Sequence record: OL631257.1
Direction: 5' to 3' (one strand)
Source: Escherichia phage ECCR664
Length of the DNA stretch: 64,000 nucleotides
Position 1 is the first letter of the stretch. The number at the start of each line of letters is the position of its first letter. A program made the position numbers and the translations under genes. The notes under the pieces were generated by a model. That model had not been told where the DNA came from and searched no databases. It worked only from the letters and a program-made list of their open reading frames with translations. Below are positions 3,590-57,320 of this stretch, piece after piece.

Positions 3590-4111
3590 TTAGTAACCAT
3601 TATCCTGACGTTCAAAGTTGTGTTGATTTTTCAAGTAGTAAAGTTTAAAGATTTCTTCTGCTGTAAGACCAAGACCTTGGAACATGTTCAGAACGAAATG
3701 CAGAATATCAATCATTTCAAACTTAATTTCAAGCTGGTCTTCAGGAGACAGTTCATCGATACGACGATTTCGATATTCAGCATGTTGTGCTTTCCATGGC
3801 TTCCATACACTGCTGGCGGCTTTTTCACCATTGCTCATACCACCAAGTGAAGTCAGCAGTTCACGGAATTCATCATCAATATAATCTTTCTGATTACGCA
3901 GCCAATCAACAACATCACCAGCAGTAGCCAATTCATCAGGATGTTTGTTATGTTCAGGCTTGTCATTTGCCAGACGAACCTGTAAAGATTTCTGCATATC
4001 AAGCATTACCTGAAGTGGGTCTTTATCTTCGTGAATCAGAGCATTAAAATAAGCTTCTTCTGCTTTATCAACACCAGAAATAAGTTGTGAACATTCGTTA
4101 AAGTGTGCCAT
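3590..4111 (-). CDS. 56: dCTPase/dUTPase (MazG-like), gene 56
   Basis: MAHFNEC ... DPLQVMLDMQ ... ETAGDVV ... CIDDEFRELLTSLG ... MSPEDQLEIKFE ... EEIFKLYYLKN ... RQD.GY matches T4 gp56 as recalled; start taken at the internal ATG with RBS. Confidence 0.85.
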   Translation of the reverse strand: MAHFNECSQLISGVDKAEEAYFNALIHEDKDPLQVMLDMQKSLQVRLANDKPEHNKHPDELATAGDVVDWLRNQKDYIDDEFRELLTSLGGMSNGEKAASSVWKPWKAQHAEYRNRRIDELSPEDQLEIKFEMIDILHFVLNMFQGLGLTAEEIFKLYYLKNQHNFERQDNGY

Positions 4112-4392
4112 TATTTTTCCTTTCAATTCAGTATAAGAGAGTTAATTCTAACATTAATTTTATAAAGCGTAATAAATAATAGGTAACTAAGGAGATATTA
4201 TGTTTAAACTTACATCGTTAATCAACGCTATTAAAGGCAATAAAAGAAAACTGCTATCGCCGCAATAGTTGTAGGTGGCATTATTTCATGGAACTTCGGG
4301 ATTGCACCATTGTTAGTTGCCCATGGTATTATAGTTCCTTCTGTTCCATTGGATACTGTAGTTGATTTGGCCTTTGCTATTATAGGACTTGT

Positions 4393-5415
4393 TTAAATCT
4401 TCGAATAACGAGATAATCTCATTTTAGCATGCAACCCACTTGAAATATTCTGTTTCATATATTCTAAAATTTCTTGTGGTGTTGCATTTTCTTTCATTAC
4501 CATATCATTCACATCCTTTGATCTCCATGGAGCTCGGTCCCAGAACATAACACGTTCGCCTGCATCAACTAATCGCTTCATGCGAGCTATAGTATCCGGA
4601 TGCCTAGGTTCATTATCCATTACCCATACCCGACGTTCTTTAAATGGTACCACATCTAAATCTATTGAGCCGCCTGTGATAGCGATTGCATTGGGTATGA
4701 ATAAACTATCAATAGGGCCTTCCATTACCCAGACGTCTCCTTCCTTAACACGTTCAACACCATAAATTTTTGTTGCAGACTCAAAAGCTTTAATAGTGAT
4801 ATATTTTTGAGGAGCATCTTTGCGAAGTGCACGTCCTTGGAATGACTCGGCCTTCCCGTCTTTATTAAAAATAGGAATCACTAAACGCGGTTCGGGAATC
4901 TCTTTCTTATACGTACCAGGTTGAATCTTGTTGACCAATTTGGGCCATTCTAATGTGAACCATAATCTATTCCACGATTCTTTAGGAATACACCGAGACT
5001 TAACATATTTCACAATAGGATGCTCTTCAGGCAGCTTGTCCAGACGAGAACAAGACGGCAAAGAATTTATAGTCTTTTTCTCCGGTTCTGGTTTATGTTC
5101 AGGAACCTTTTCAATCTTTGGTTCCATTCTAGCTTTTTCTTTACGAACTTCCATTAGATACTCGCGATAAAGCTCTTCATCATACTCTTTTAAGTATCCG
5201 GAAATTGTATTGTGGTATTGACAGTTATAGCAATGTACATTACCAGGAGTACCGCCATAATACCATCCGCGAGCTTTCATTGCATCTGTCTGAGAGTCGC
5301 CACAAACTGGACAACGAAACGTTAATTTAAATGTGCTTGAATTATTGATTTGTCTAAAACGAGGTAGGTGAGAAAACGCACGATAAGCAAATTCATTATC
5401 TATCCATTCAGCCAT
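4393..5415 (-). CDS. 61: DNA primase, gene 61
   Basis: 340 aa; zinc-ribbon CPVCGDS ... CYNC; N-terminus MAEWIDNEFAYRAF as in T4 gp61; adjacent to 56 and 41. Confidence 0.9.
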   Translation of the reverse strand: MAEWIDNEFAYRAFSHLPRFRQINNSSTFKLTFRCPVCGDSQTDAMKARGWYYGGTPGNVHCYNCQYHNTISGYLKEYDEELYREYLMEVRKEKARMEPKIEKVPEHKPEPEKKTINSLPSCSRLDKLPEEHPIVKYVKSRCIPKESWNRLWFTLEWPKLVNKIQPGTYKKEIPEPRLVIPIFNKDGKAESFQGRALRKDAPQKYITIKAFESATKIYGVERVKEGDVWVMEGPIDSLFIPNAIAITGGSIDLDVVPFKERRVWVMDNEPRHPDTIARMKRLVDAGERVMFWDRAPWRSKDVNDMVMKENATPQEILEYMKQNISSGLHAKMRLSRYSKI

Positions 5416-5454
5416 AGTATTCTCCAGAGGCCTTAAATTAATAAGGCCATCATA

Positions 5455-5949
5455 TCACAACTTATTGATATTTACTTTAATTCGCTTTCTTTTCTTGGAA
5501 GGAATTTGTTCTGGACCTTTATTTACGACTGCACCTGTAGTTGTTCCTGATGCAATAGCTTGAGGGCTGCCACCTGAATCACCAGCAACCATATCCTCAA
5601 ATAAAGGGAGTTCTTTAAATATTTCTTTCTGTTGTTCTTCAGTAATGTTATAGCGTGAAGCTACAGCGCTCCAAGCAGACATCATTGAGGCCATTCCATT
5701 AAGACCCGGAACAGTGCTCATCATTCGCTTCATTGAACGAACTGAAGCATGAAAAGGTGTATAAGCCGCTTTCTCTTCAGGAGTGGAAGGACGTTTAAGA
5801 ACACTTCCACGTTCGTCGATTATTTTGGCTTCGTACGCTTTCCATTCTGTAAAAGGTTTTTGCATTAGTCGAATAAACTTATATGCGTAAACAGAATCTA
5901 TTGCAGTGTTAATAATACCCATAGGTACCTCCTGAGTATATTTAATCAA
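5455..5949 (-). CDS. hypothetical protein (61.1 position)
   Basis: 164 aa ORF; basic C-terminus KKRKRIKV. Confidence 0.35.
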   Translation of the reverse strand: MIKYTQEVPMGIINTAIDSVYAYKFIRLMQKPFTEWKAYEAKIIDERGSVLKRPSTPEEKAAYTPFHASVRSMKRMMSTVPGLNGMASMMSAWSAVASRYNITEEQQKEIFKELPLFEDMVAGDSGGSPQAIASGTTTGAVVNKGPEQIPSKKRKRIKVNINKL

Positions 5950-6139
5950 TCACAAAGATCGCTTTATCACCGTTCGCATCTGTGACTTCATATGTAGTGT
6001 CTTCATAGTGTGGAATATTCCAAATTACACCATCATTAGCTTTTACGCTAATATGGCATTGGTGTTTTGAAACAACTTCATAATCTTCAAAACTTGTAAA
6101 AACACTAATTTTAGAACCAGTGCAAATTGCAGTAGTCAT
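5942..6139 (-). CDS. hypothetical protein (65 aa)
   Basis: ORF only. Confidence 0.25.
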   Translation of the reverse strand: MTTAICTGSKISVFTSFEDYEVVSKHQCHISVKANDGVIWNIPHYEDTTYEVTDANGDKAIFVID

Positions 6140-6247
6140 TTTAACCTCGATTCATAAATGCATTAAATATTTGGTCATCAACAGAAATTTCTAATTCGAC
6201 TTCAATTGCTTCAGCCTTTTCTTCAGGTGGTAATTCGTATCCACACA

Positions 6248-6799
6248 CTACAATTTTTCATCGATATCAAAATATACAGAAGCAATACGATTAATGTTAC
6301 TTTCAGTTAAGTCTAAATCAACATCAACATCTTTTTGACCTACACTTAAAGGATAACTAATACGGGTTATTTTATTATCTTTAACAAAGAGTCCACCAAC
6401 ATACTCTGTACTACGTTTGAAGTTTACACGTTTCCGAATTGAAAGATATGATACATCTTTACCGTGAGCTCGGCTCATAGGACATAATGAATAACTAGAA
6501 TAAGAGATATCAAATCCTACGCCTTCAACATGTGCCAGAGTATCATGAGTAAACCAATTATAGTCGTATGCCAAATCCATTATATTGTAATATGTGAAAG
6601 GCACAGGATTAACATCATATGTTGTACCTTTAAAATCTGCCCAGGCAACGATTTCGTTATCTTTAACAATTACAAAAATTACACCAATATGGTATCCATT
6701 ATTATTTTCATTCGGCGTTATATTATAACATTGTGCATTAGGAAATTTACCATATTTAAACGGCGCGTTTTTGTGCATATAATAAATCATATTATTCAC
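6248..6799 (-). CDS. hypothetical protein (61.2 position)
   Basis: 183 aa ORF overlapping the sp start. Confidence 0.35.
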   Translation of the reverse strand: MNNMIYYMHKNAPFKYGKFPNAQCYNITPNENNNGYHIGVIFVIVKDNEIVAWADFKGTTYDVNPVPFTYYNIMDLAYDYNWFTHDTLAHVEGVGFDISYSSYSLCPMSRAHGKDVSYLSIRKRVNFKRSTEYVGGLFVKDNKITRISYPLSVGQKDVDVDLDLTESNINRIASVYFDIDEKL

Positions 6800-7085
6800 C
6801 TGTGATTTCGGTTACGATATCTTTGTTATCGAAATTAGGGTCACAATACAAAACATAGTTGTACTGCATGATACCGCCAGACTTAAGTTGTTCAACAACT
6901 TTATTAACCATATTAGGACGGTCTCGTTTAGTAATGTTCATGATATCAGCGAAGATTTGATGTTCAACATCTTCTTGATTTGCAGTCATTGACCACTCAC
7001 AGAGGTCTTTATCATAACCTGCCGTAACTGGAGCTGGTGCACACGATACTGCAAGTAAGATTGCTGCCAATGATAACTTTTTCAT
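6792..7085 (-). CDS. sp: spackle periplasmic protein (Sp)
   Basis: 97 aa; signal peptide MKKLSLAAILLAVSCA; GYDKDLCEWSMTA ... DIMNI.KRDRP ... LKSGG.MQYNYVLYCD matches T4 Sp as recalled. Confidence 0.7.
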   Translation of the reverse strand: MKKLSLAAILLAVSCAPAPVTAGYDKDLCEWSMTANQEDVEHQIFADIMNITKRDRPNMVNKVVEQLKSGGIMQYNYVLYCDPNFDNKDIVTEITGE

Positions 7086-7111
7086 TTTAACTCCTTAGTT
7101 GATTTGATAGG

Positions 7112-7144
7112 ACTACTATACTATAGTCCATCTATAATGTAAAC
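7112..7144 (-). promoter_or_regulatory. T4 early-type promoter upstream of sp
   Basis: Minus strand GTTTAC - 18 nt - TATAGT, then AAGGAG and ATG. Confidence 0.5.
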
Positions 7145-7148
7145 AAGT

Positions 7149-7396
7149 TTATTCTTTTTCGCGAATAATAATTACTTGTTGAGGCTGCTGAGCAGATTTC
7201 TTTTCGGCAACGATAGACCAAATTAAAGTTCCAATCCAACCAATCATCGTCCAGTTAAAGAGTAAAGATACAAAGAAGATTGCTGTTGTGCTTTTGTGCC
7301 ACGAATAAGTGCGATTACCCAAGGCAACATGTAAATGATGATTGAACCAATACCTGCGATTAAAACTGCTACTGAACTAGCTACGAATAATTCCAT
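7149..7396 (-). CDS. superinfection-immunity-family membrane protein (Imm-like), apparent frameshift
   Basis: Not in the ORF track. Translates to ...YMLPWVIALIRG / ...LLFNWTMIGWIGTLIWSI, resembling the Imm_superinfect motif (LP..IA..RGH ... GWTGIGWI.AL.WA); frame switch in the middle. Confidence 0.5.
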
Positions 7397-7457
7397 GTTA
7401 ATTTCCTCTTGATTTGTTATGTTTATAATATCTTGTTTTAACTTTGGCGTAAACCAA

Positions 7458-7826
7458 TTAATTAAATTTGTTTAAACGTTCAACACACTGGACGTAGTTA
7501 TTCGCGATTTGTTTCTGGGTAGGCTCTTTACCAGTTGTTTCAACATAGCGAATGAATGCGATTTCAGTAGCCTGTAAGCAATGTTCTTTAACGCGTTGTT
7601 CTTTTGACAATGCTACAGTATCAGAGTCACGATAACGTTGAGCATGGGCATCAGCTTGAATCATTCGATTACCTACAGTAACCGGGTCTTCTACTTCAAC
7701 TTTAGGTTGGTTGTACTGTTTAACATTCGGGTTATAAATCAATTGACCAACATTATTAGGGATAAAGCCGTGAGCACCACATCCAGTTAATCCGAATACC
7801 ATTGCTAGAGCGATTAATTTTTTCAT
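7458..7826 (-). CDS. putative lipoprotein
   Basis: 122 aa; MKKLIALAMVFGLTGCG lipobox. Confidence 0.5.
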   Translation of the reverse strand: MKKLIALAMVFGLTGCGAHGFIPNNVGQLIYNPNVKQYNQPKVEVEDPVTVGNRMIQADAHAQRYRDSDTVALSKEQRVKEHCLQATEIAFIRYVETTGKEPTQKQIANNYVQCVERLNKFN

Positions 7827-7854
7827 TTCAATTTCCTCTGTAGTTGATAAAAAG

Positions 7855-7884
7855 ATAGTAACACAGTATGTGGTGCTTGTAAAC
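7855..7884 (-). promoter_or_regulatory. T4 early-type promoter upstream of the lipoprotein gene
   Basis: Minus strand GTTTAC - 17/18 nt - TACTAT. Confidence 0.45.
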
Positions 7885-7886
7885 AG

Positions 7887-8138
7887 CTATTTTAAACTTT
7901 TGCGAAATTTGCGTTTTTCTTGACGAATCTGACGTTTAGTCGGACGTACAGCAAATTTAACGAAGTCCACTTTGCCGTGAGGAAACTTTTCAGATGCTTC
8001 ACAGTCCATCATTAGTTCCCATCCTTCCAGAATAAGAGCTTTCCATTGTGTAGTTGATGCAAATTCGTATGTTGATGGTTTAAACACAGTTGAGTACATA
8101 TTATCCTCTGAAATCAGCTTCAAAAACTTTCTCGTCAT
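7887..8138 (-). CDS. small protein with basic C-terminal VRPTKRQ tail (family member 1)
   Basis: 83 aa; C-terminus FAVRPTKRQIRQEKRKFRKSLK shared with two small ORFs near 35.9-36.6 kb. Confidence 0.35.
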   Translation of the reverse strand: MTRKFLKLISEDNMYSTVFKPSTYEFASTTQWKALILEGWELMMDCEASEKFPHGKVDFVKFAVRPTKRQIRQEKRKFRKSLK

Positions 8139-8292
8139 TAATAAATGCTTTAACTAATGCATTGTTCACTTCAGCAAGTTGTACCGCAACCCACTCGATT
8201 TCTTCACGATCACCTGATAACATGATATCTTTAGTGAACATCTCGCCGCTTTTAAACCAGCCAATAAAAGTAACTTTAGTTAATTTGCCCAT
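8101..8292 (-). CDS. dmd: Dmd (discriminator of mRNA degradation; antitoxin against RnlA/LsoA)
   Basis: FIGWFK ... MFTKDI ... EVNNALVKAFI.D.KV matches T4 Dmd (60 aa) as recalled; start taken at the internal Met. Confidence 0.8.
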   Translation of the reverse strand: MGKLTKVTFIGWFKSGEMFTKDIMLSGDREEIEWVAVQLAEVNNALVKAFINDEKVFEADFRG

Positions 8293-8605
8293 ATTTCCTC
8301 GCAAAATGCCCATTCAGCGTGATAAACTGTAGCACCTTTAGTATCATTCATTTGAACTACGTCTACCGGAGAAATTACTCGATAGAGACGTGGTTCACCT
8401 CCATAAGAGCGTGCTGCTCGTCCTGCATAAATCTTTGCTAAACCGATATCTTCAGTAAAGAATACACGATTCAAGTTTTTCTTACGTCCAATTTCAGACA
8501 GAACTCCTGTTTCTTCAGGAGGACAAAGCATATTTTCGATGTTAGCTGAACTACTTGAACCATGATAAAAATCTTAAATTCTGCTTTACAATCGATGGTT
8601 TTCAT
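8280..8605 (-). CDS. small Tpt1/KptA-like (ADP-ribosyltransferase-fold) protein, apparent frameshift
   Basis: ATG at 8605 (MKTIDCKAEFK) shifts into ...DFYHGSSSSANIEN ... RVFFTEDIGLAKIYAGRAARSYG ... PRLYRV, resembling the KptA C-terminal block (LYHGT ... HLSADEATARKVGARHG ... PVILTV). Not in T4 between dmd and 41 as I recall. Confidence 0.35.
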
Positions 8606-8631
8606 TTTGTTCTCCAGTAGTTGATAGGTCT

Positions 8632-8660
8632 ATAATAACACAACTACTGGAGAAGTAAAC
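8632..8660 (-). promoter_or_regulatory. T4 early-type promoter
   Basis: Minus strand GTTTAC - 17 nt - TATTAT, then the ATG at 8605. Confidence 0.45.
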
Positions 8661-9068
8661 TTAAAAATGTAATTTAGATATATCTGCGTTGATTTCGTTT
8701 TGGTTTGCGTCGTATGCAATTAAACGAACCGCTTTAGATGGGTCATTCAATGCATAGAAATGATGGAACATTGCTCGAACGATATCGCCATTTACAAGTT
8801 CTACCTGGATAGGAGAACCTTTTTCGAGTTGGAAATGTTCATAAGCTTTGATGGTTCGCAGATAATCAAGTTTTTGATTTCCGGCTCCAACAATTTGTAC
8901 GATACGTTTGCCCATGTTTTCCATACGAGATACAATAGTTTTAGGAGCAAGAATAACGTAGGTTGCCAGCGGAGAAACTACTTCAACAGTTGTGTTTTCG
9001 GTGATTGCAGTAAAATTGCTTGAGACATATTCATAATGTTTTCCTCTTGGTTGGTGTAAGTACATCAT
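8661..9068 (-). CDS. hypothetical protein (135 aa)
   Basis: ORF between dmd and gene 41; beta-rich; vague Sm/Hfq-like look (VELVNGDIVRAMF); start uncertain. Confidence 0.3.
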   Translation of the reverse strand: MMYLHQPRGKHYEYVSSNFTAITENTTVEVVSPLATYVILAPKTIVSRMENMGKRIVQIVGAGNQKLDYLRTIKAYEHFQLEKGSPIQVELVNGDIVRAMFHHFYALNDPSKAVRLIAYDANQNEINADISKLHF

Positions 9069-9087
9069 ATCATGCCTAGAGGAAGAT

Positions 9088-9116
9088 GTAAACCCCGAAA
9101 GGAGACCGAAGTCTCC
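9088..9116. terminator. stem-loop terminator candidate downstream of gene 41 (possibly bidirectional)
   Basis: Hairpin GGAGAC-CGAA-GTCTCC at 9101..9116; T-run on the plus side (TTTTATTAAAATTTT) and UUUCGGGGUUU on the minus side. Confidence 0.4.
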
Positions 9117-9121
9117 TTTTA

Positions 9122-10560
9122 TTAAAATTTTAACTCATTGGCTAAGCTATCTAGGTCAGCACGTGTTGCTTTGGCTTTACCTACGCGTTCCGTACGATTC
9201 ACCTCTGCCTGACGCATCTGAGCACCTGCGTTTTCATTTACTGTGTTAGGTGTGTTCATGCCTTCTTGCTCAATCTCAACCCATTTCTGATTGCCTTTAC
9301 GTACACCCATCAAGAACTTGTTCCACTTATTCTTATCACCATATCGTGATTTGATTTGTTTGATAAGTTGTTGTTCAGCTTGTGCAAGTTCTTCAGTTTC
9401 AATTACAGCCAACATGAAATCTGCCGTTGCTGGTAAACCTGCTGATTCTGCAATATCGCTCATGTTCATGTCTGAAGCATCCCATGCTGCACGTCCTACT
9501 TGAGCTGCAGTCCATAGAACTGTTTCAGATTCTACTGCTAATGCACGAAGTTCTTCTGCGATAGCTTTAACTAATGTGTAACTATTTTCAGTGTAAACTC
9601 TGATACGACAAGACCCACAAATACCTAAGTAATCGACTATAATTACAGACGGCACAAAGTTCTTCTTGAGTTTCAATTCATTAAGCAATGCACGGAATGT
9701 ATTAGCATTAGCTCCGCCAGTAGGATACTGTTTGACTACTAAACGTCCTAATGTGGATTTTGAACGCCATTTTTCCATCTTGGCTTTATATTCAGCATAA
9801 GATACGTTACCATCATCGATATCATCAAGTGATACGTCAAGCATGTTTGCATCTATACGCTTAGCACAAACTTCTTCAGCCATTTCCATGGAAATATAAA
9901 GAACATTATGTCCTGTTTGAAGATAATCTGCAGCAAGTGAACAAAGGCCTAAAGATTTACCAACGTTAACACCTGCCATTAAAACATTCAGTGTACCGGT
10001 TTCAGCACCACCTTTGGTGATTTTATTCAGAATGTTTAATTTGAACGGGACCTTACGTGCTTTATTTAGATAAGAAAGCCAGCGTGCTTCATAGTCTTCC
10101 ATCCAGTCATGACCAACATAACTATCAAACGAAATTGAAAGTGCTTGACGCATAATATCAGGAATAGCTCCTACGTCAGGCATTTTCTTGTTACGTTGTT
10201 CTGGAGGTAGTTCAGCATTAGACTGAATCTCAATGATTTTGGATGTAGCATTATACATCGCTTTTGCTGGACATATTTCTCAGTTTCTTTAACCAACCAT
10301 TCGTGGTCTTCAGGAGTGTCAGCCAATTTTTCAATTAGGTCTGAAGTTCCTTTATATTCGGCTTCAGTTAAAGAACTGTTATCTAAAGCCACCTTTAATG
10401 CATTGATAGATGGCATTGCATTATATTCGTTAACGTGGCTCTTTATAATTTTAAAGACATTTTTGCCGGTCCACGCTCAAAATACTCAGAATCCATATAA
10501 GGCCAGACCTTAGAAAAATAAGCCTGGTCGTATACGAGATGAGACAAAATAATTTCTACC
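9122..10560 (-). CDS. 41: replicative DNA helicase (DnaB-like), gene 41; two apparent frameshifts
   Basis: Fragments 9122..10258 (378 aa), 10171..10416 and 10417..10560 together match T4 gp41 almost residue-for-residue as recalled (e.g. PDVGAIPDIMRQALSISFDSYVGHDW, Walker A GVNVGKS). Confidence 0.9.
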
Positions 10561-10903
10561 ACGATAACTCCTTAAAAGAATTTAAATTTTTCTTGGTTCG
10601 TTCATTAAAAGCTTGTTGTACCTGCATTGTAACACATTTTTCAACATGTGGTGCAAGTTCTGCTTTTCTGTCCTGGTCAAGAACTGCAAAGTCCATTACG
10701 ATTTTACCATCAACCCAGTCTAGTTTTGTAATATAGACTATATGATGGGAACCGTCTTCAAGTGTAATCAGAATCTCTTGAATGACATTTTCCATTGCTG
10801 AACGGATAATTTTAAGAGATTCATTAAACACTCGTTCTTTGCGAATGTCTTCCCTTCCGAAGAAGGGGATTCATCAACGATTTCTAGATTTAAATCATCG
10901 AGA
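10556..10903 (-). CDS. 40: gene 40-like protein (head vertex assembly chaperone position)
   Basis: ORF 10556..10831 (91 aa) plus upstream extension to the uvsX stop; assigned by position between 41 and uvsX. Confidence 0.4.
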
Positions 10904-12074
10904 TTATTCATCGAAATCTTCCATTTCGTCAAGGTCGTTTTCAATATCTGCTGCAGACGGAGCATCAGAAGCTTTAACCGGAACTTTAGTTGTTGCTTTG
11001 CAATTAATAAGGTCGTTAACAGCGTCATCAACTTCTTTAATAGAAGAGATAGCACCTAGTTTATATTTAGTTTCAATTGCATCTCGGAAAGGTTTGTGTT
11101 TAAACAACGGCCCCCAGAATTCTACGCAATCAGTAGCTTTAGCACGCCATGATTTCTCTTCACGAATCATTTCACCTGTTTCTTCGTCAAGGAATTCACG
11201 AGCATACCAACCAGCTTTAGGTTTAACCACAAAACCAATTTCAGTTGCCATTTCTAACAAGCCACTGAATGGGTCAATACCGCCATCAAAATTAACCGTG
11301 ATTGGGAAAGTAGATTTCTCTTTAACTGTACGAGATTTTTCTGCTTTCAACGTGAAGTCATAACCGGTCAATTCTGTACCTTCTTTAACCTGACGTTTAG
11401 AGATAAAAATACTGTGTTAGCAGAATAAAGAATACCTGTACCACCGCCCATAATCTCTTTAGGATATAGTCCGCCGATTTCCATTGCTGTATGGTTGATT
11501 GCAACACATGGAATATCTTTAATAGTCAGATACGGGGTTACAATACGGAAAAGAGATTTAAGTGCCTTAGCACGAGACATATCACCTACGACTTTCTCGT
11601 TCAATGCATCTTCGGTTTCTTTCTTAGATGCAGTGTTACCGATTGAATCGATAAAGATAATAACTTTATCACCGCGTTCAATCGCGTCAAGCTGATTAGT
11701 CATATCAACTTTAAGTTGTTCGACGGACTGAATTGGTGTATGAACTACACGGTCTAAATCAACACCCATTGAACGGAAGTAAGATTCTGAAGCACCGAAT
11801 TCTGAGTCATAGAACAAACAGATTGCATCTTTATATTTCTTCATATACGCTGCAACCATAGTTAGTCCAAACAATGTTTTAAAATGTTTAGAAGGTGCAG
11901 CAAAATAGTCAAGCCTGATTGCAATCCTGCATTCAGAGCACCACCTAGTGCAATATTCAACATCGGAATACGAGTAGGGACTTCATCACGATTATTAAAC
12001 AGCTTAGACTTAGTCAAGTCTGCAGTCATTTTAGAAGTAGAAGCTTTAATCAGACGAGATTTTAAATCAGACAT
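10904..12074 (-). CDS. uvsX: UvsX recombinase (RecA-like); two apparent frameshifts
   Basis: Three fragments (10904..11371, 11368..11874, 11862..12074) together give about 390 aa; C-terminal block FTLKAEKSRTVKEKS.FPITVNFDGGIDPFSGLLEMATEIGFVVKPK matches T4 UvsX as recalled. Confidence 0.9.
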
Positions 12075-12173
12075 TGTATTTTTCCATAGGCATCATTATA
12101 TTTTACTCATGTTTAAAAGATAAGATGATTATATACTAAGAGTTATACAGCATTTAAAACTTTAAACAGGCTC

Positions 12174-12722
12174 TTAACGAGCCCATTTGATAATTTCTGT
12201 AATCAAATTATTACGTTCGCTTGCATTAAATCCTATAACTTTGTTAGCACCATCATGATTAAGTAATTGATACGTTTGGATTTTGTTATGAATTGCAAAC
12301 TCTTCAAAATGTGAAATGACTGTATTAAAACCGAATGAAGACAAAGTAATAAGATCGTCTTCAAAACTTTCAGTCATTTCGTTACGTGTTAAAATAATTG
12401 TGAACACATCATGGTTTTGGCAAAGACGAATATAATCCTGTTCATAAACGTCAAGAACCGAGTCCGCATCTTGTCGAATACGTCCATAAACCCAGTTACT
12501 AATATATCCACGGTCTAACAGATAAATCTTAGTAGGGTCTAAATAATTCAACATCGTTTCGAAACAGCCAACTTCATTTCGAGACTTAACATCGAAACGT
12601 CCATCAACTGTTCGTTTAGGGAAATCAATCTTTACATATCTTTCACTAATTTCCATTATGTCATTAATGAAAGTTGTTTTACCAGCATTATCCGGTCCGT
12701 CTACTAAAATAATTTTAGCCAT
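12174..12722 (-). CDS. P-loop kinase, thymidylate/dNMP-kinase-like
   Basis: 182 aa; Walker A GPDNAGKTT; LLDRGYISNWVYG resembles the TMPK DRY..S..AYQ lid motif. Sits where T4 has beta-gt. Confidence 0.55.
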   Translation of the reverse strand: MAKIILVDGPDNAGKTTFINDIMEISERYVKIDFPKRTVDGRFDVKSRNEVGCFETMLNYLDPTKIYLLDRGYISNWVYGRIRQDADSVLDVYEQDYIRLCQNHDVFTIILTRNEMTESFEDDLITLSSFGFNTVISHFEEFAIHNKIQTYQLLNHDGANKVIGFNASERNNLITEIIKWAR

Positions 12723-12723
12723 T

Positions 12724-13623
12724 TTATTCCTCGATTACGACATCTTCGTATTTAGGTATATTATACGGTGAAGAAATTAAAGCATTAAAGTAGATGAACT
12801 CACCAAGACCTGGATGGAATACTTCTTCAGGATTTTCGAAATATTGAATCTTCGGACGTCCTTTAAGAATTTGATAGTACTCAGTTTTAGTTGGATTAAA
12901 AATTCGAATCAGCGCTTCTTCGGGATACTTATTTCTGTCGAAACTATTATTTGGATCAGTTATATAAAGCGGTTGACCTAATTGAATTGCGCATTCAACC
13001 ACTTGTTCAAAACGATAGCATGGGTCACTAATTCGAAATGGATGAAAAATACCATCTAGATGAATAGGAGCCAAATCACCTACAAGACGCTGCATGACGG
13101 AAGGACGTATAACTTTCTGCGTTACGATAATCTTATTACCATCTGCACCTGCGTTAACCAGCACTTCTTTTTGACGTTCATTCAACACAGTAGTTTGAAG
13201 TGAACGATTAACCGACAACATATCGGTTTTTAAGAATTCGTCAATATAAAAACGTGGTTTATTAGGGTCTGCAGTGATATTGAAATTGAATTCCACATCA
13301 AAAGCGCCGTCATATCCGGTGATATCTGTGATTAGAAAATCACAATCATAATAAGCAATTAATGAATCAACCACAAATTCATTTTCAGACCAGAAATATT
13401 TACGAGTGTTATACGCGTTATCTTTATACCATAATGGAACAAACTTAAATTCTGGGAAAAGACGTTCACATTCTTTAATATCGGATGCATTACGTGGATA
13501 TGTAATCACATCACCTGGATTAGCACGGTGCAAATGAAGTTGGAAGTTGCCATCCTTAAGGATAGCATACTGTCCAGTTTCATAAGACCGCATACTCAAG
13601 ATTGGTACGCGGAAAATAGCCAT
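12724..13623 (-). CDS. hypothetical protein; positional candidate for the hmC-DNA glycosyltransferase
   Basis: 299 aa; no similarity to T4 beta-gt as recalled; immediately downstream of gene 42 and coupled to the P-loop kinase (1-nt gap). Confidence 0.3.
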   Translation of the reverse strand: MAIFRVPILSMRSYETGQYAILKDGNFQLHLHRANPGDVITYPRNASDIKECERLFPEFKFVPLWYKDNAYNTRKYFWSENEFVVDSLIAYYDCDFLITDITGYDGAFDVEFNFNITADPNKPRFYIDEFLKTDMLSVNRSLQTTVLNERQKEVLVNAGADGNKIIVTQKVIRPSVMQRLVGDLAPIHLDGIFHPFRISDPCYRFEQVVECAIQLGQPLYITDPNNSFDRNKYPEEALIRIFNPTKTEYYQILKGRPKIQYFENPEEVFHPGLGEFIYFNALISSPYNIPKYEDVVIEE

Positions 13624-56364: not shown

Positions 56365-56901
56365 TTATTTGAAAGGTTTTACCATATGGAAATTTTGTTT
56401 GAAACGTTTTACGTAATCGTCATGTCCTAAGCTTTGGTACATACTTACTACTTTGCTGTAGTTTTCCCAGGCGTATTCACGGAACCAACCGGAGGTGATG
56501 CTTGTGCAGACTTTTTCTAATGCCATCATGAAACTGGCTTCAGGGTTAATTTCAAAGTTATTAGGAATCTGAGAACGTTCTAATGCTAGTACACATGATT
56601 CTTCGTATACACCGGCCAATTTGACCATTTCTGGTAATGATTCGAACTTCTCGCGTGAGGTCATGACTTCAGAACCATCTTTCATGTAAAACGTATAAGC
56701 AGGGCGGTCTGTTAGTGCAATGGCTTCGTGAATAGTATCATGGTCATATGTATAGATGTCATCTTTAAAGAATGCGCTTTTAGAAGTGTCAAGAACCGGG
56801 TGAGCATAGTTCAAGGTTTCTTTCTGGCGTTTCAGCATAATTTCAGTAAGTTCATCGTTCAGTGTAACACCTTTACCACGAAGATACTGAATATGGTTCA
56901 T
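56365..56901 (-). CDS. hypothetical protein, possibly the C-terminal domain of the upstream nucleotidyltransferase
   Basis: 178 aa ORF starting 5 nt after the stop of 56907..57320 in another frame. Confidence 0.35.
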   Translation of the reverse strand: MNHIQYLRGKGVTLNDELTEIMLKRQKETLNYAHPVLDTSKSAFFKDDIYTYDHDTIHEAIALTDRPAYTFYMKDGSEVMTSREKFESLPEMVKLAGVYEESCVLALERSQIPNNFEINPEASFMMALEKVCTSITSGWFREYAWENYSKVVSMYQSLGHDDYVKRFKQNFHMVKPFK

Positions 56902-56906
56902 AGTCT

Positions 56907-57320
56907 TTAAAAGAATGGATTATTTTTCTTGAAACGATGGGACATCTTAATTGCAAGACACATCTCAGGAGTTGCCCAGTAAAACCCGTTCAAACGGTCT
57001 TTAGTCAAATTTTTCTTGGCATATTTTAAAAGGTCATAAGAAGACGTGAAATCTTCAGGAGTGAGTTCACCGACTAATTCACGGACATTAGTGATTGCCG
57101 GAACAATATATGCTTCAAAATGAGTTTCGCGTCCATTATGGAAGCATTTGAAAACTTGGACATCAGGGTTATCTTGGTGGACATATACACCCATCATTTG
57201 ATTTTTGAATGCATTCCAAGAACCTTGGTCTGCAATAAAGTCCCAGTCACTATTTTTGATAGCGTTAGAATCAATAAGTCCGTGATAGTGAAGTGCACGA
57301 GAACCAATAACTAACATCAT
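56907..57320 (-). CDS. Pol-beta-superfamily nucleotidyltransferase-fold protein
   Basis: 137 aa; VIGSRALHYHGLIDSNAIKNSDWDFIAD fits G-S-x(n)-D-x-D. Confidence 0.45.
   Translation of the reverse strand: MMLVIGSRALHYHGLIDSNAIKNSDWDFIADQGSWNAFKNQMMGVYVHQDNPDVQVFKCFHNGRETHFEAYIVPAITNVRELVGELTPEDFTSSYDLLKYAKKNLTKDRLNGFYWATPEMCLAIKMSHRFKKNNPFF

Follow-up and report, generated by a model that had tools for sequence, protein, structure and literature searches.

A minimal Arr-related ADP-ribosyltransferase-fold gene ahead of dmd in RB69-like phages as a candidate early effector

The dmd–tifA locus of T4 and its relatives is a proven counter-defence region. Dmd acts against the RNase toxins RnlA and LsoA, TifA (the product of gene 61.4) against ToxN, and AdfA (61.2) against DarT; the inhibition of ToxN by the TifA of phage RB69 was shown experimentally, and transcription of dmd–tifA in T4 starts from an early promoter ahead of dmd (PMC9391042). 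For T4-type phages of Escherichia and Shigella, Iyer et al. (2022; Viruses 14:1977, PMC9503650) describe a pair consisting of a p0068-family ADP-ribosyltransferase (ART) and Dmd, which is probably identical to the RB69ORF040c–dmd pair. A homologue of RB69ORF040c, referred to here as mini-ART, is located on the minus strand at 8280..8605, adjoining dmd, in a stretch of 64,000 nucleotides from Escherichia phage ECCR664 (sequence record OL631257.1; hereafter the window). That the gene encodes an ART is an already known prediction: RB69ORF040c has homologues annotated as 'putative ADP-ribosyl transferase', a few are already named 'ADP-ribosyl transferase' (in Pantoea phage Phynn and Acinetobacter phage Konradin), and the neighbourhood of ART and Dmd was published in 2022. 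On balance, we regard the members of the RB69ORF040c family as minimal (~105 amino acids), Arr-related, NAD+-dependent ADP-ribosyltransferases that would serve as early, host-directed effectors acting in trans.

The mini-ART open reading frame (ORF) extends from an ATG at 8605-8603 to a TAA at 8282-8280 and is broken into two frames, 8471..8605 (44 amino acids) and 8280..8531 (83 amino acids). The original prediction, made from the DNA alone, had proposed a frameshifted ORF of about 108 amino acids at this position, which agrees with the product length of 105 amino acids in RB69, where the ORF is intact, and of 108 codons in the window after frameshift correction. The window protein shares 97-98% identity with RB69ORF040c; at the DNA level, Escherichia phage RB69 and over 120 further Mosigvirus genomes match the surrounding 1.4 kb with 98% identity. 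The only disruptive difference to RB69 within the gene is the loss of one base from a homopolymer: the alignment showed five A (T5 on the coding strand) at 8567..8571, where RB69 and its relatives have six. With this base restored, the protein reads MKTIDCKAEFKIFYHGSSSS...RVFFTEDIGLAKIYAGRAARSYGG...EEIWAN. It carries YHGS at positions 14-17, VFFTED at 48-53 and AKIYAGRAA at 57-65, so that the pattern YHG[ST], hydrophobic-T/S-x-D/E and A..YAGRAA, on which the original prediction was built, is present with all its motifs. The TGA stop codon of the RB69 gene, which forms an ATGA stop/start overlap with dmd, is TGG in the window (8280-8292), resulting in three additional residues (end EIWAN*) and a 13-nucleotide overlap with dmd.

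About 17 single-base deletions relative to RB69 were found over 9.4 kb of the window (3815-13191), nearly all of them in A, T or C homopolymer runs (for example at 10261, 10459, 10586, 11404 and 11901). Such deletions frameshift several small ORFs and also genes 41, 40 and uvsX, which are essential. Because the same kind of loss breaks essential genes, the frameshift in mini-ART is judged from the sequence comparison to be an artefact of homopolymer under-calling and not a sign of gene decay. A programmed frameshift and a pseudogene were rejected on the same grounds. The window stems from an error-prone assembly, and any 'pseudogene' call within it is therefore suspect.

The corrected protein matched PHROG 2110, whose function is unannotated, with an E value of 1.8e-59. 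A structure model was calculated with AlphaFold2 for P0001, a family member 97% identical to the corrected window protein, using an alignment of 35 sequences (pLDDT 85.4, pTM 0.75). In this model, only 12 residues precede strand 1, and an N-terminal RNA-binding domain is absent, as had been predicted. The split beta-sheet core of ARTs was recognisable by structure comparison: in a Foldseek search against the Protein Data Bank (PDB), Arr ranked first (2hw2 and 9iaf, probability 1.00, TM 0.63), and RES and MbcT were also among the fold matches. Among the viral models of BFVD, a match to a 'Rifampin ADP-ribosyl transferase' of an uncultured siphovirus was obtained (37% identity, E 5.5e-7). According to the model, the RB69ORF040c-family protein is a stand-alone, single-domain ART fold.

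At the sequence level, Arr was the only characterised family to be detected. The corrected protein scored 13.7 bits (E 0.076) against positions 1-61 of the 99 positions of the Pfam profile Arr-ms (PF12120), which is below the gathering threshold of 25 bits, and 6 of 36 close family members matched Arr-ms at E<=1. An exhaustive family-profile search yielded 260 representatives at 50% identity, including intermediates (P0124, P0126, P0128, P0141 and P0150; profile-search E about 1e-30) that reached 26.9-31.5 bits. Since these distant family members themselves exceed the gathering score, the homology to Arr is supported transitively. All Arr-ms matches end at profile position 59-67, leaving the C-terminal third unmatched. 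When the broadened family profile was compared with the PDB, Arr was the sole match (E 0.053); the narrow profile, made from the T4-like alignment, gave no match there. In the register of the Arr alignment, H15 corresponds to the His of HGT, F49 to the Tyr of 'IYIT' and E38-x-G-R41 to E-A-G-R of Arr; the Arr residues aligned to H15 and F49 are presumably H19 and Y49. Besides Arr-ms, nothing was found in Pfam at E<=10 for the corrected protein, including PTS_2-RNA, and a search of NCBIfam was negative. The PADLOC defence models did not match mini-ART, P0126 or P0119 at E<=1. A word-indexed search recovered about 120 related clusters from T4-type phages.

The protein had originally been described as Tpt1/KptA-like. 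The ART fold stood up to modelling and Foldseek, and the family assignment shifted from Tpt1 to Arr as the nearest characterised family by sequence. In an hhalign comparison of the family with four Tpt1 C-lobes, taken from PDB alignments, the same register was obtained with a probability of 4.7% and a score of 19.4, a match considered too weak for inferring homology to Tpt1. 'Tpt1-like' is valid at the fold level only, because mini-ART lacks the defining features of Tpt1. Judged by its sequence, the protein is related to Arr, yet it is no bona fide Arr. The family keeps the NAD+-binding signature without a classical catalytic Glu and so resembles Tpt1 and, in part, Arr.

Conservation was counted across 110 diverse full-length representatives of the domain. 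H15 and G16 do not vary, and all 110 have T or S at position 17. E38 is conserved in 108, R41 and Y60 in 107 each, F49 in 106 (Tyr in the other four) and T51 in 107 (Ser in the other three); together with A57, these six residues are 96-99% conserved. P29, P30, T33, K43, N44, R/K63, G69, G70, P79, G91 and A100 are nearly invariant as well. The [HR]-G-[ST] motif of strand 1 and the aromatic/Ser-x-[ST] motif of strand 2, both associated with NAD+, are thus present in the family. The conserved polar residues outside these motifs cluster in a basic loop, S37-E38-x-G-R41-K-K43-N44. Y60 follows F49 at a distance of 11 residues, matching the spacing between the two tyrosines that stack on nicotinamide in PARP1 and diphtheria toxin. 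The occurrence of these motifs is, judging from the alignments, not due to chance.

The gene order around mini-ART differs between RB69 and T4. In the RB69 annotation, the order in the direction of transcription is uvsX, 40, 41, RB69ORF041c, RB69ORF040c, dmd, 61.4, imm.1, imm, sp and 61.2, whereas the T4 record gives uvsX, 40, 41, dmd, 61.4, sp, 61.2, 61.1 and 61, with 58 bp between 41 and dmd. Mini-ART is absent from the 41-dmd interval of T4 and therefore does not represent a conserved T4 61.x protein. Because dmd directly follows gene 41 in T4, mini-ART and the homologue of RB69ORF041c constitute an insertion relative to T4, as supposed in the original prediction. In the Dhakavirus JS98, mini-ART alone is inserted at this site, adjoining dmd and without RB69ORF041c. 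The two inserted genes are independent of each other, since RB69ORF041c is confined to RB69-like phages.

A promoter scan of the window identified a T4-early-type promoter, (G)TTTACT-16-TATTAT with a TG, at 8632..8659 (minus strand), just past the stop codon of the RB69ORF041c homologue. The second gene behind it is dmd (63 amino acids; 8101..8292, minus strand; Pfam Dmd, E 8e-21, and RB69 annotation), whose start codon lies inside the end of mini-ART. The third cistron is the homologue of 61.4/tifA (70 amino acids; 7887..8099, minus strand; Pfam DUF7279, E 4.7e-20, and RB69 gp61.4), the ToxN inhibitor. The scan revealed no promoter-like site between mini-ART and dmd; ART-dmd-61.4 is considered to be the transcription unit, both for this reason and because the stop codon of mini-ART overlaps the start of dmd. 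Promoters of the early type lie ahead of mini-ART in four other lineages, and the arrangement GTTTAC...TAnnAT was found upstream of mini-ART in JS98, Konradin and 44RR2.8t and, in T4, upstream of dmd.

RNA folding predicted a perfect 14-bp hairpin at 8610..8654 of the minus strand (arms 8610-8623 and 8641-8654), which is conserved in RB69 and has a dG of −21.9 kcal/mol (z −4.74; 0 of 200 shuffled sequences were as stable). Its 3' arm includes the Shine-Dalgarno sequence GGAG (8612-8615), and the −10 element of the promoter is located in the loop. Because the hairpin pairs GGAG, read-through transcripts from gene 41 and the RB69ORF041c homologue would have the ribosome-binding site of mini-ART sequestered. 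Transcripts from the gene's own promoter would be without the 5' arm. The T4 genes e, soc and 49 use a hairpin-sequestered ribosome-binding site, and by analogy a similar regulation may apply to mini-ART. In T4, an analogous 15-bp hairpin spans the early promoter ahead of dmd (L011:4045-4112, z −4.85), where the Shine-Dalgarno sequence is not covered.

Mini-ART was detected by tblastn in 609 of 50,697 phage records. The hosts were mainly Escherichia (215 records), Klebsiella (116), Acinetobacter (68), Aeromonas (62) and Enterobacter (29), followed by Shigella (17), Cronobacter (14), Vibrio (14) and others. Dmd was found in 798 records, mostly from phages of Escherichia, Shigella, Yersinia and Salmonella; 571 of these, like the T4 and T2 matches, were less than 60% identical to the query and are taken to be Tequatrovirus without mini-ART. 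The gene also occurs in other hyperplastic regions, namely in Konradin, 44RR2.8t, Aeromonas phage 65.2, Klebsiella phage Kpn35c1, Cronobacter phage GAP161, Proteus phage phiP4-3 and Vibrio phage 501E54-1. A universally conserved neighbour was not found among the lineages compared, and a search with the Dmd hidden Markov model (E<=10) revealed no Dmd-like ORF within 2.5-3 kb of mini-ART in 7 of 9 sampled phage lineages, nor in the metagenomic loci. A gene for RNA ligase 2 is located about 2 kb downstream in Pseudotevenvirus and Slopekvirus. On a T4-like metagenomic contig (Logan SRR25018332, L006:4016-6282), the order is gp23, an AlkB-like 2OG-Fe(II) oxygenase, mini-ART as the C-terminal part of a 248-amino-acid protein, and a Thg1-like (tRNA-His guanylyltransferase-like) protein; the last three genes suggest an RNA or tRNA repair cassette.

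Many representatives of the family are proteins of 250-3,900 amino acids in which the domain is internal or C-terminal. P0139 (1955 amino acids) contains two different ART domains, an ART-PolyVal domain at 1501-1617 and mini-ART at 1714-1802, followed by a NUDIX domain at 1832-1929. Mini-ART is combined with ART-PolyVal in P0132 (3735 amino acids), with CHAP in P0145 (2892 amino acids), with GNAT and Toprim in P0165 (1046 amino acids), and with DUF7178 in others. Some of the long homologues are phage proteins encoded beside ribonucleotide reductase and thymidylate synthase genes. The N-terminal extensions of the longer homologues are diverse and, by inspection only, unlike the Tpt1 N-lobe. Iyer et al. 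(2022; PMC9503650) interpret polyvalent proteins as effectors that are injected into the recipient.

The analysis shows the gene itself with its fold, its homology and conservation, the layout of its operon, and how the domain is distributed and reused as a module. We favour an effector role because of the strong purifying selection, the NAD+ motifs, the early promoters, the operon position and the reuse in polyvalent proteins; catalytic activity, action in trans and the class of acceptor are what we infer from this set of features. In the proposed mechanism, transcription of mini-ART would begin as soon as the cell is infected: its own T4-early-type promoter would drive ART-dmd-tifA, with mini-ART in first position. 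NAD+ would be bound via strand 1 (Y14-H15-G16-S/T17), strand 2 (F49-F50-T51) and Y60, with an aromatic-x10-Tyr spacing as in PARP and diphtheria toxin, and the basic loop, which is partly common to Arr (E-x-G-R), may complete the active or acceptor site. The protein would then transfer ADP-ribose in trans to a host macromolecule, aiding takeover or counter-defence. The acceptor would most likely be RNA-linked: the end of an RNA molecule, or else a defence toxin of the RNase type or a partner of such a toxin. We lean to this because of the RNA-related neighbours, the basic loop and a Tpt1-like core that has no catalytic acid. Located next to the promoter of an operon that also encodes the RNase-toxin inhibitors Dmd and TifA, mini-ART is well placed as a candidate enzyme of anti-defence or host takeover, and the operon context together with the polyvalent modules strengthens the original idea of an anti-defence or RNA-repair function. 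In a more specific version, held tentatively and considered rather unlikely, mini-ART would provide the ART-dmd-tifA operon with a third counter-defence factor, an enzyme that would ADP-ribosylate an RNase-type toxin or defence protein or RNA ends.

Several observations weigh against the effector role and its chemistry. H-Y-[EDQ] ARTs carry a catalytic Glu, Asp or Gln ahead of strand 5, and no acidic residue is conserved in the corresponding segment 88-99 among the 110 representatives, a position that was mapped from the secondary structure of the model and not by residue-level superposition. Position 93, for example, is T in 59, E in 18, S in 15 and N in 6 of them. Classical transfer of ADP-ribose to protein side chains is thus not assured. 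The aromatic residue of the second motif is Phe and not Tyr or His, and the loop 31-40, which carries E38, was modelled with low confidence (block pLDDT 59). The contextual hints towards an RNA-linked acceptor are weak. Guilt by association with dmd and tifA holds only for Mosigvirus and Dhakavirus, because the neighbours differ between lineages. In the literature, no experimental study of any member of the RB69ORF040c family was found.

The neighbourhood with dmd has led to a different proposal, a type II toxin–antitoxin system of ART toxin and Dmd antitoxin, used for example in superinfection exclusion or addiction (Iyer, Burroughs, Anantharaman & Aravind, 2022). It is set out in section 3.7.1 of that work, which also mentions a Mod-like ART beside Dmd in some Klebsiella phages (PMC9503650), and it fits the adjacent and translationally coupled genes of the RB69-like phages and the adjacent genes of JS98. 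However, the two distributions barely overlap: the Klebsiella, Acinetobacter, Aeromonas, Enterobacter, Cronobacter and Vibrio groups with mini-ART are not among the listed Dmd groups, T4 and likewise the presumed Tequatrovirus records have dmd without mini-ART, most of the sampled lineages lack a Dmd-like ORF nearby, and the domain occurs in polyvalent proteins without Dmd. Dmd also has an independent, established role against host RnlA/LsoA (PMC9391042). The distribution data argue against ART and Dmd as an obligate pair, and a toxin–antitoxin system is accordingly regarded as quite unlikely. Still less probability is given to a non-transferase use of the fold, as an NAD+ glycohydrolase, a sponge for NAD+ or ADP-ribose, or a catalytically dead binder. 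The unconserved strand-5 acid and the very small size of the domain would be compatible with it, and other ART-fold proteins are NADases or phosphorylases (RES and MbcT are among the fold matches). The strict conservation of H-G-[ST], aromatic-x-[ST] and the loop residues E38, R41, K43 and N44 across very distant phages, on the other hand, argues for catalysis with a specific substrate and against mere binding.

The remaining explanations follow the two families that mini-ART resembles. As a Tpt1-like enzyme of RNA repair, it would place ADP-ribose onto a terminal 2'- or 5'-phosphate of RNA. Where RNase toxins or anticodon nucleases of the host have left such ends, the 2'-phosphates would thereby be removed or the 5'-phosphates capped. 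Tpt1 enzymes ADP-ribosylate 5'-phosphate RNA ends (reviewed in PMC8883491); mini-ART shares with the H-H-h clade the lack of a conserved catalytic acid, its GRKKN loop is basic and invariant, and Thg1-like, AlkB-like, RNA ligase 2 and Dmd proteins are encoded nearby in one lineage or another. These points are set against an absent N-terminal RNA lobe, and with it three of the four tetrad residues, a Phe in place of the second His of H-H-h, the Pfam and hhalign results given above, and homologue extensions that do not resemble the Tpt1 N-lobe on inspection; RNA repair of this kind is judged improbable, if less so than a toxin–antitoxin system. As an Arr-like enzyme that modifies small molecules, mini-ART would ADP-ribosylate a diffusible compound, such as an RNA-polymerase inhibitor of the rifamycin type, and so protect the host RNA polymerase that T4-type phages need. 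Arr is indeed the only relationship seen at the sequence level, the first Foldseek match is Arr bound to rifampin, Arr enzymes tolerate broad substrates (PMC8883491), and Arr-family ARTs are known from actinophages (PMC9503650). Along the 99 positions of the Arr-ms profile, the matches are nevertheless limited to 1-66, Y49 is replaced by Phe, a conserved counterpart of D84 is lacking, and the presence in injected polyvalent proteins fits a macromolecular target better. Mini-ART is also about 35-40 residues shorter, so that the C-terminal part is absent or different; in Arr, this part helps to form the rifampin pocket. We place this explanation, like the toxin–antitoxin one, among the quite unlikely ones, and prefer the reading of mini-ART as an early effector acting on a host macromolecule.

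The second inserted gene of the window, the RB69ORF041c homologue (124 amino acids, PHROG 10668), is located at 8661..9034 on the minus strand and is frameshifted by a deletion at 9011. The original prediction had listed it as a 135-amino-acid ORF at 8661..9068 belonging to the insertion; the insertion was upheld, and the length turned out to be distorted by the deletion, since the actual gene starts at 9034. RB69ORF041c is an ORFan; it was found in 134 phage records, all of them RB69-like (Mosigvirus) except for two distant matches, and had no match in Pfam, NCBIfam or PADLOC. A further early-type promoter, TTTACA-17-TATGAT at 9092..9064 (minus strand), would drive this gene; a GC-rich hairpin at 9098-9119 (minus strand) lies directly past the stop codon of gene 41, and a third early-type promoter at 7883..7855 is located ahead of imm.1.

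In Biquartavirus, Slopekvirus and Pseudotevenvirus, an ORF of 250-290 amino acids (PHROG 7439/7204) is located immediately upstream of mini-ART (L004:1680-2441, L005:1593-2468 and L014:2095-2964). The Aeromonas and Klebsiella versions share 26% identity (E 5e-13). No Pfam match was obtained for it, the PDB match to an outer-membrane protein was insignificant (E 0.0099), and a homologue was not found in the window; the ORF could be a functional partner of mini-ART. In Konradin, a gene for a 'putative nucleotidyltransferase' (DUF7277 and DUF7275) lies two genes upstream of mini-ART. Its homologue in the window (56398-57314, minus strand; 53% identity over 173 amino acids) is about 48 kb away from mini-ART.

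More than 600 sequenced T4-type phages have kept the gene, which is also a recurrent module of giant injected proteins; once its acceptor is identified, a new class of substrate would be added to what is known of ADP-ribosylation by phages. If the counter-defence version is true, mini-ART would neutralise an RNA-targeting abortive-infection system beyond the reach of Dmd and TifA, and mobile elements would be using the module in polyvalent proteins as a general weapon against the immunity of their hosts. In that case, mini-ART would also be chemically unusual among ARTs, since it lacks a strand-5 acid and has an invariant E38/R41 loop.

Among the known systems, Arr (PF12120; PDB 2HW2, 9IAF and 9IBA), likewise a small single-domain ART, is the sole family detectable by sequence. 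Both proteins have Y/F-H-G-T in strand 1, the E-x-G-R loop, aromatic-x-T in strand 2, the next helix and strand 3. They differ in length (105 vs 138-151 amino acids), in the Tyr of Arr (Y49), which is Phe in mini-ART, in the extra basic K-K-N insertion of the mini-ART loop, and in D84. The residues H19, Y49 and D84 reportedly form the His-Tyr-Asp set of Arr-ms; the alignment with the mini-ART family stops ahead of D84, and no Asp is conserved beyond this point. Arr is a bacterial resistance gene, whereas mini-ART is carried by lytic T4-type phages and polyvalent proteins. With the NAD+ lobe of Tpt1/KptA (PDB 9LD3, 7KW9 and 6E3A), mini-ART has the register YHGT / hydrophobic-x-[ST]-x-D / A..G.R in common, and neither has a catalytic Glu. 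The first His of the Tpt1 H-H-h signature is kept (H15), and the second (V-H-L-S) corresponds to F49. Tpt1 chains comprise 177-206 amino acids with HGT near residue 100; their N-terminal winged-helix RNA lobe carries the Arg-His-Arg part, three residues of the Arg-His-Arg-Arg tetrad, and mini-ART has neither the lobe nor the tetrad.

Phage-encoded ARTs provide a third comparison. The p0068 family was assigned to the H-Y-[EDQ] clade by Iyer et al. (2022), who speculate on RNA substrates (PMC9503650). AcrF11 (PDB 6KYF) is, like mini-ART, a small stand-alone phage ART, from a different phage group and genomic context, and did not appear among the PDB profile matches of mini-ART at E<=10; it is said to be an anti-CRISPR protein that ADP-ribosylates Cas8f and thus a counter-defence enzyme. 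Alt, ModA and ModB of T4 are early T4-type ARTs that modify host components (cited in PMC9503650). They are larger and belong to the R-S-E clade, whereas mini-ART lacks the R-S-E signature and has an H-type motif in strand 1.

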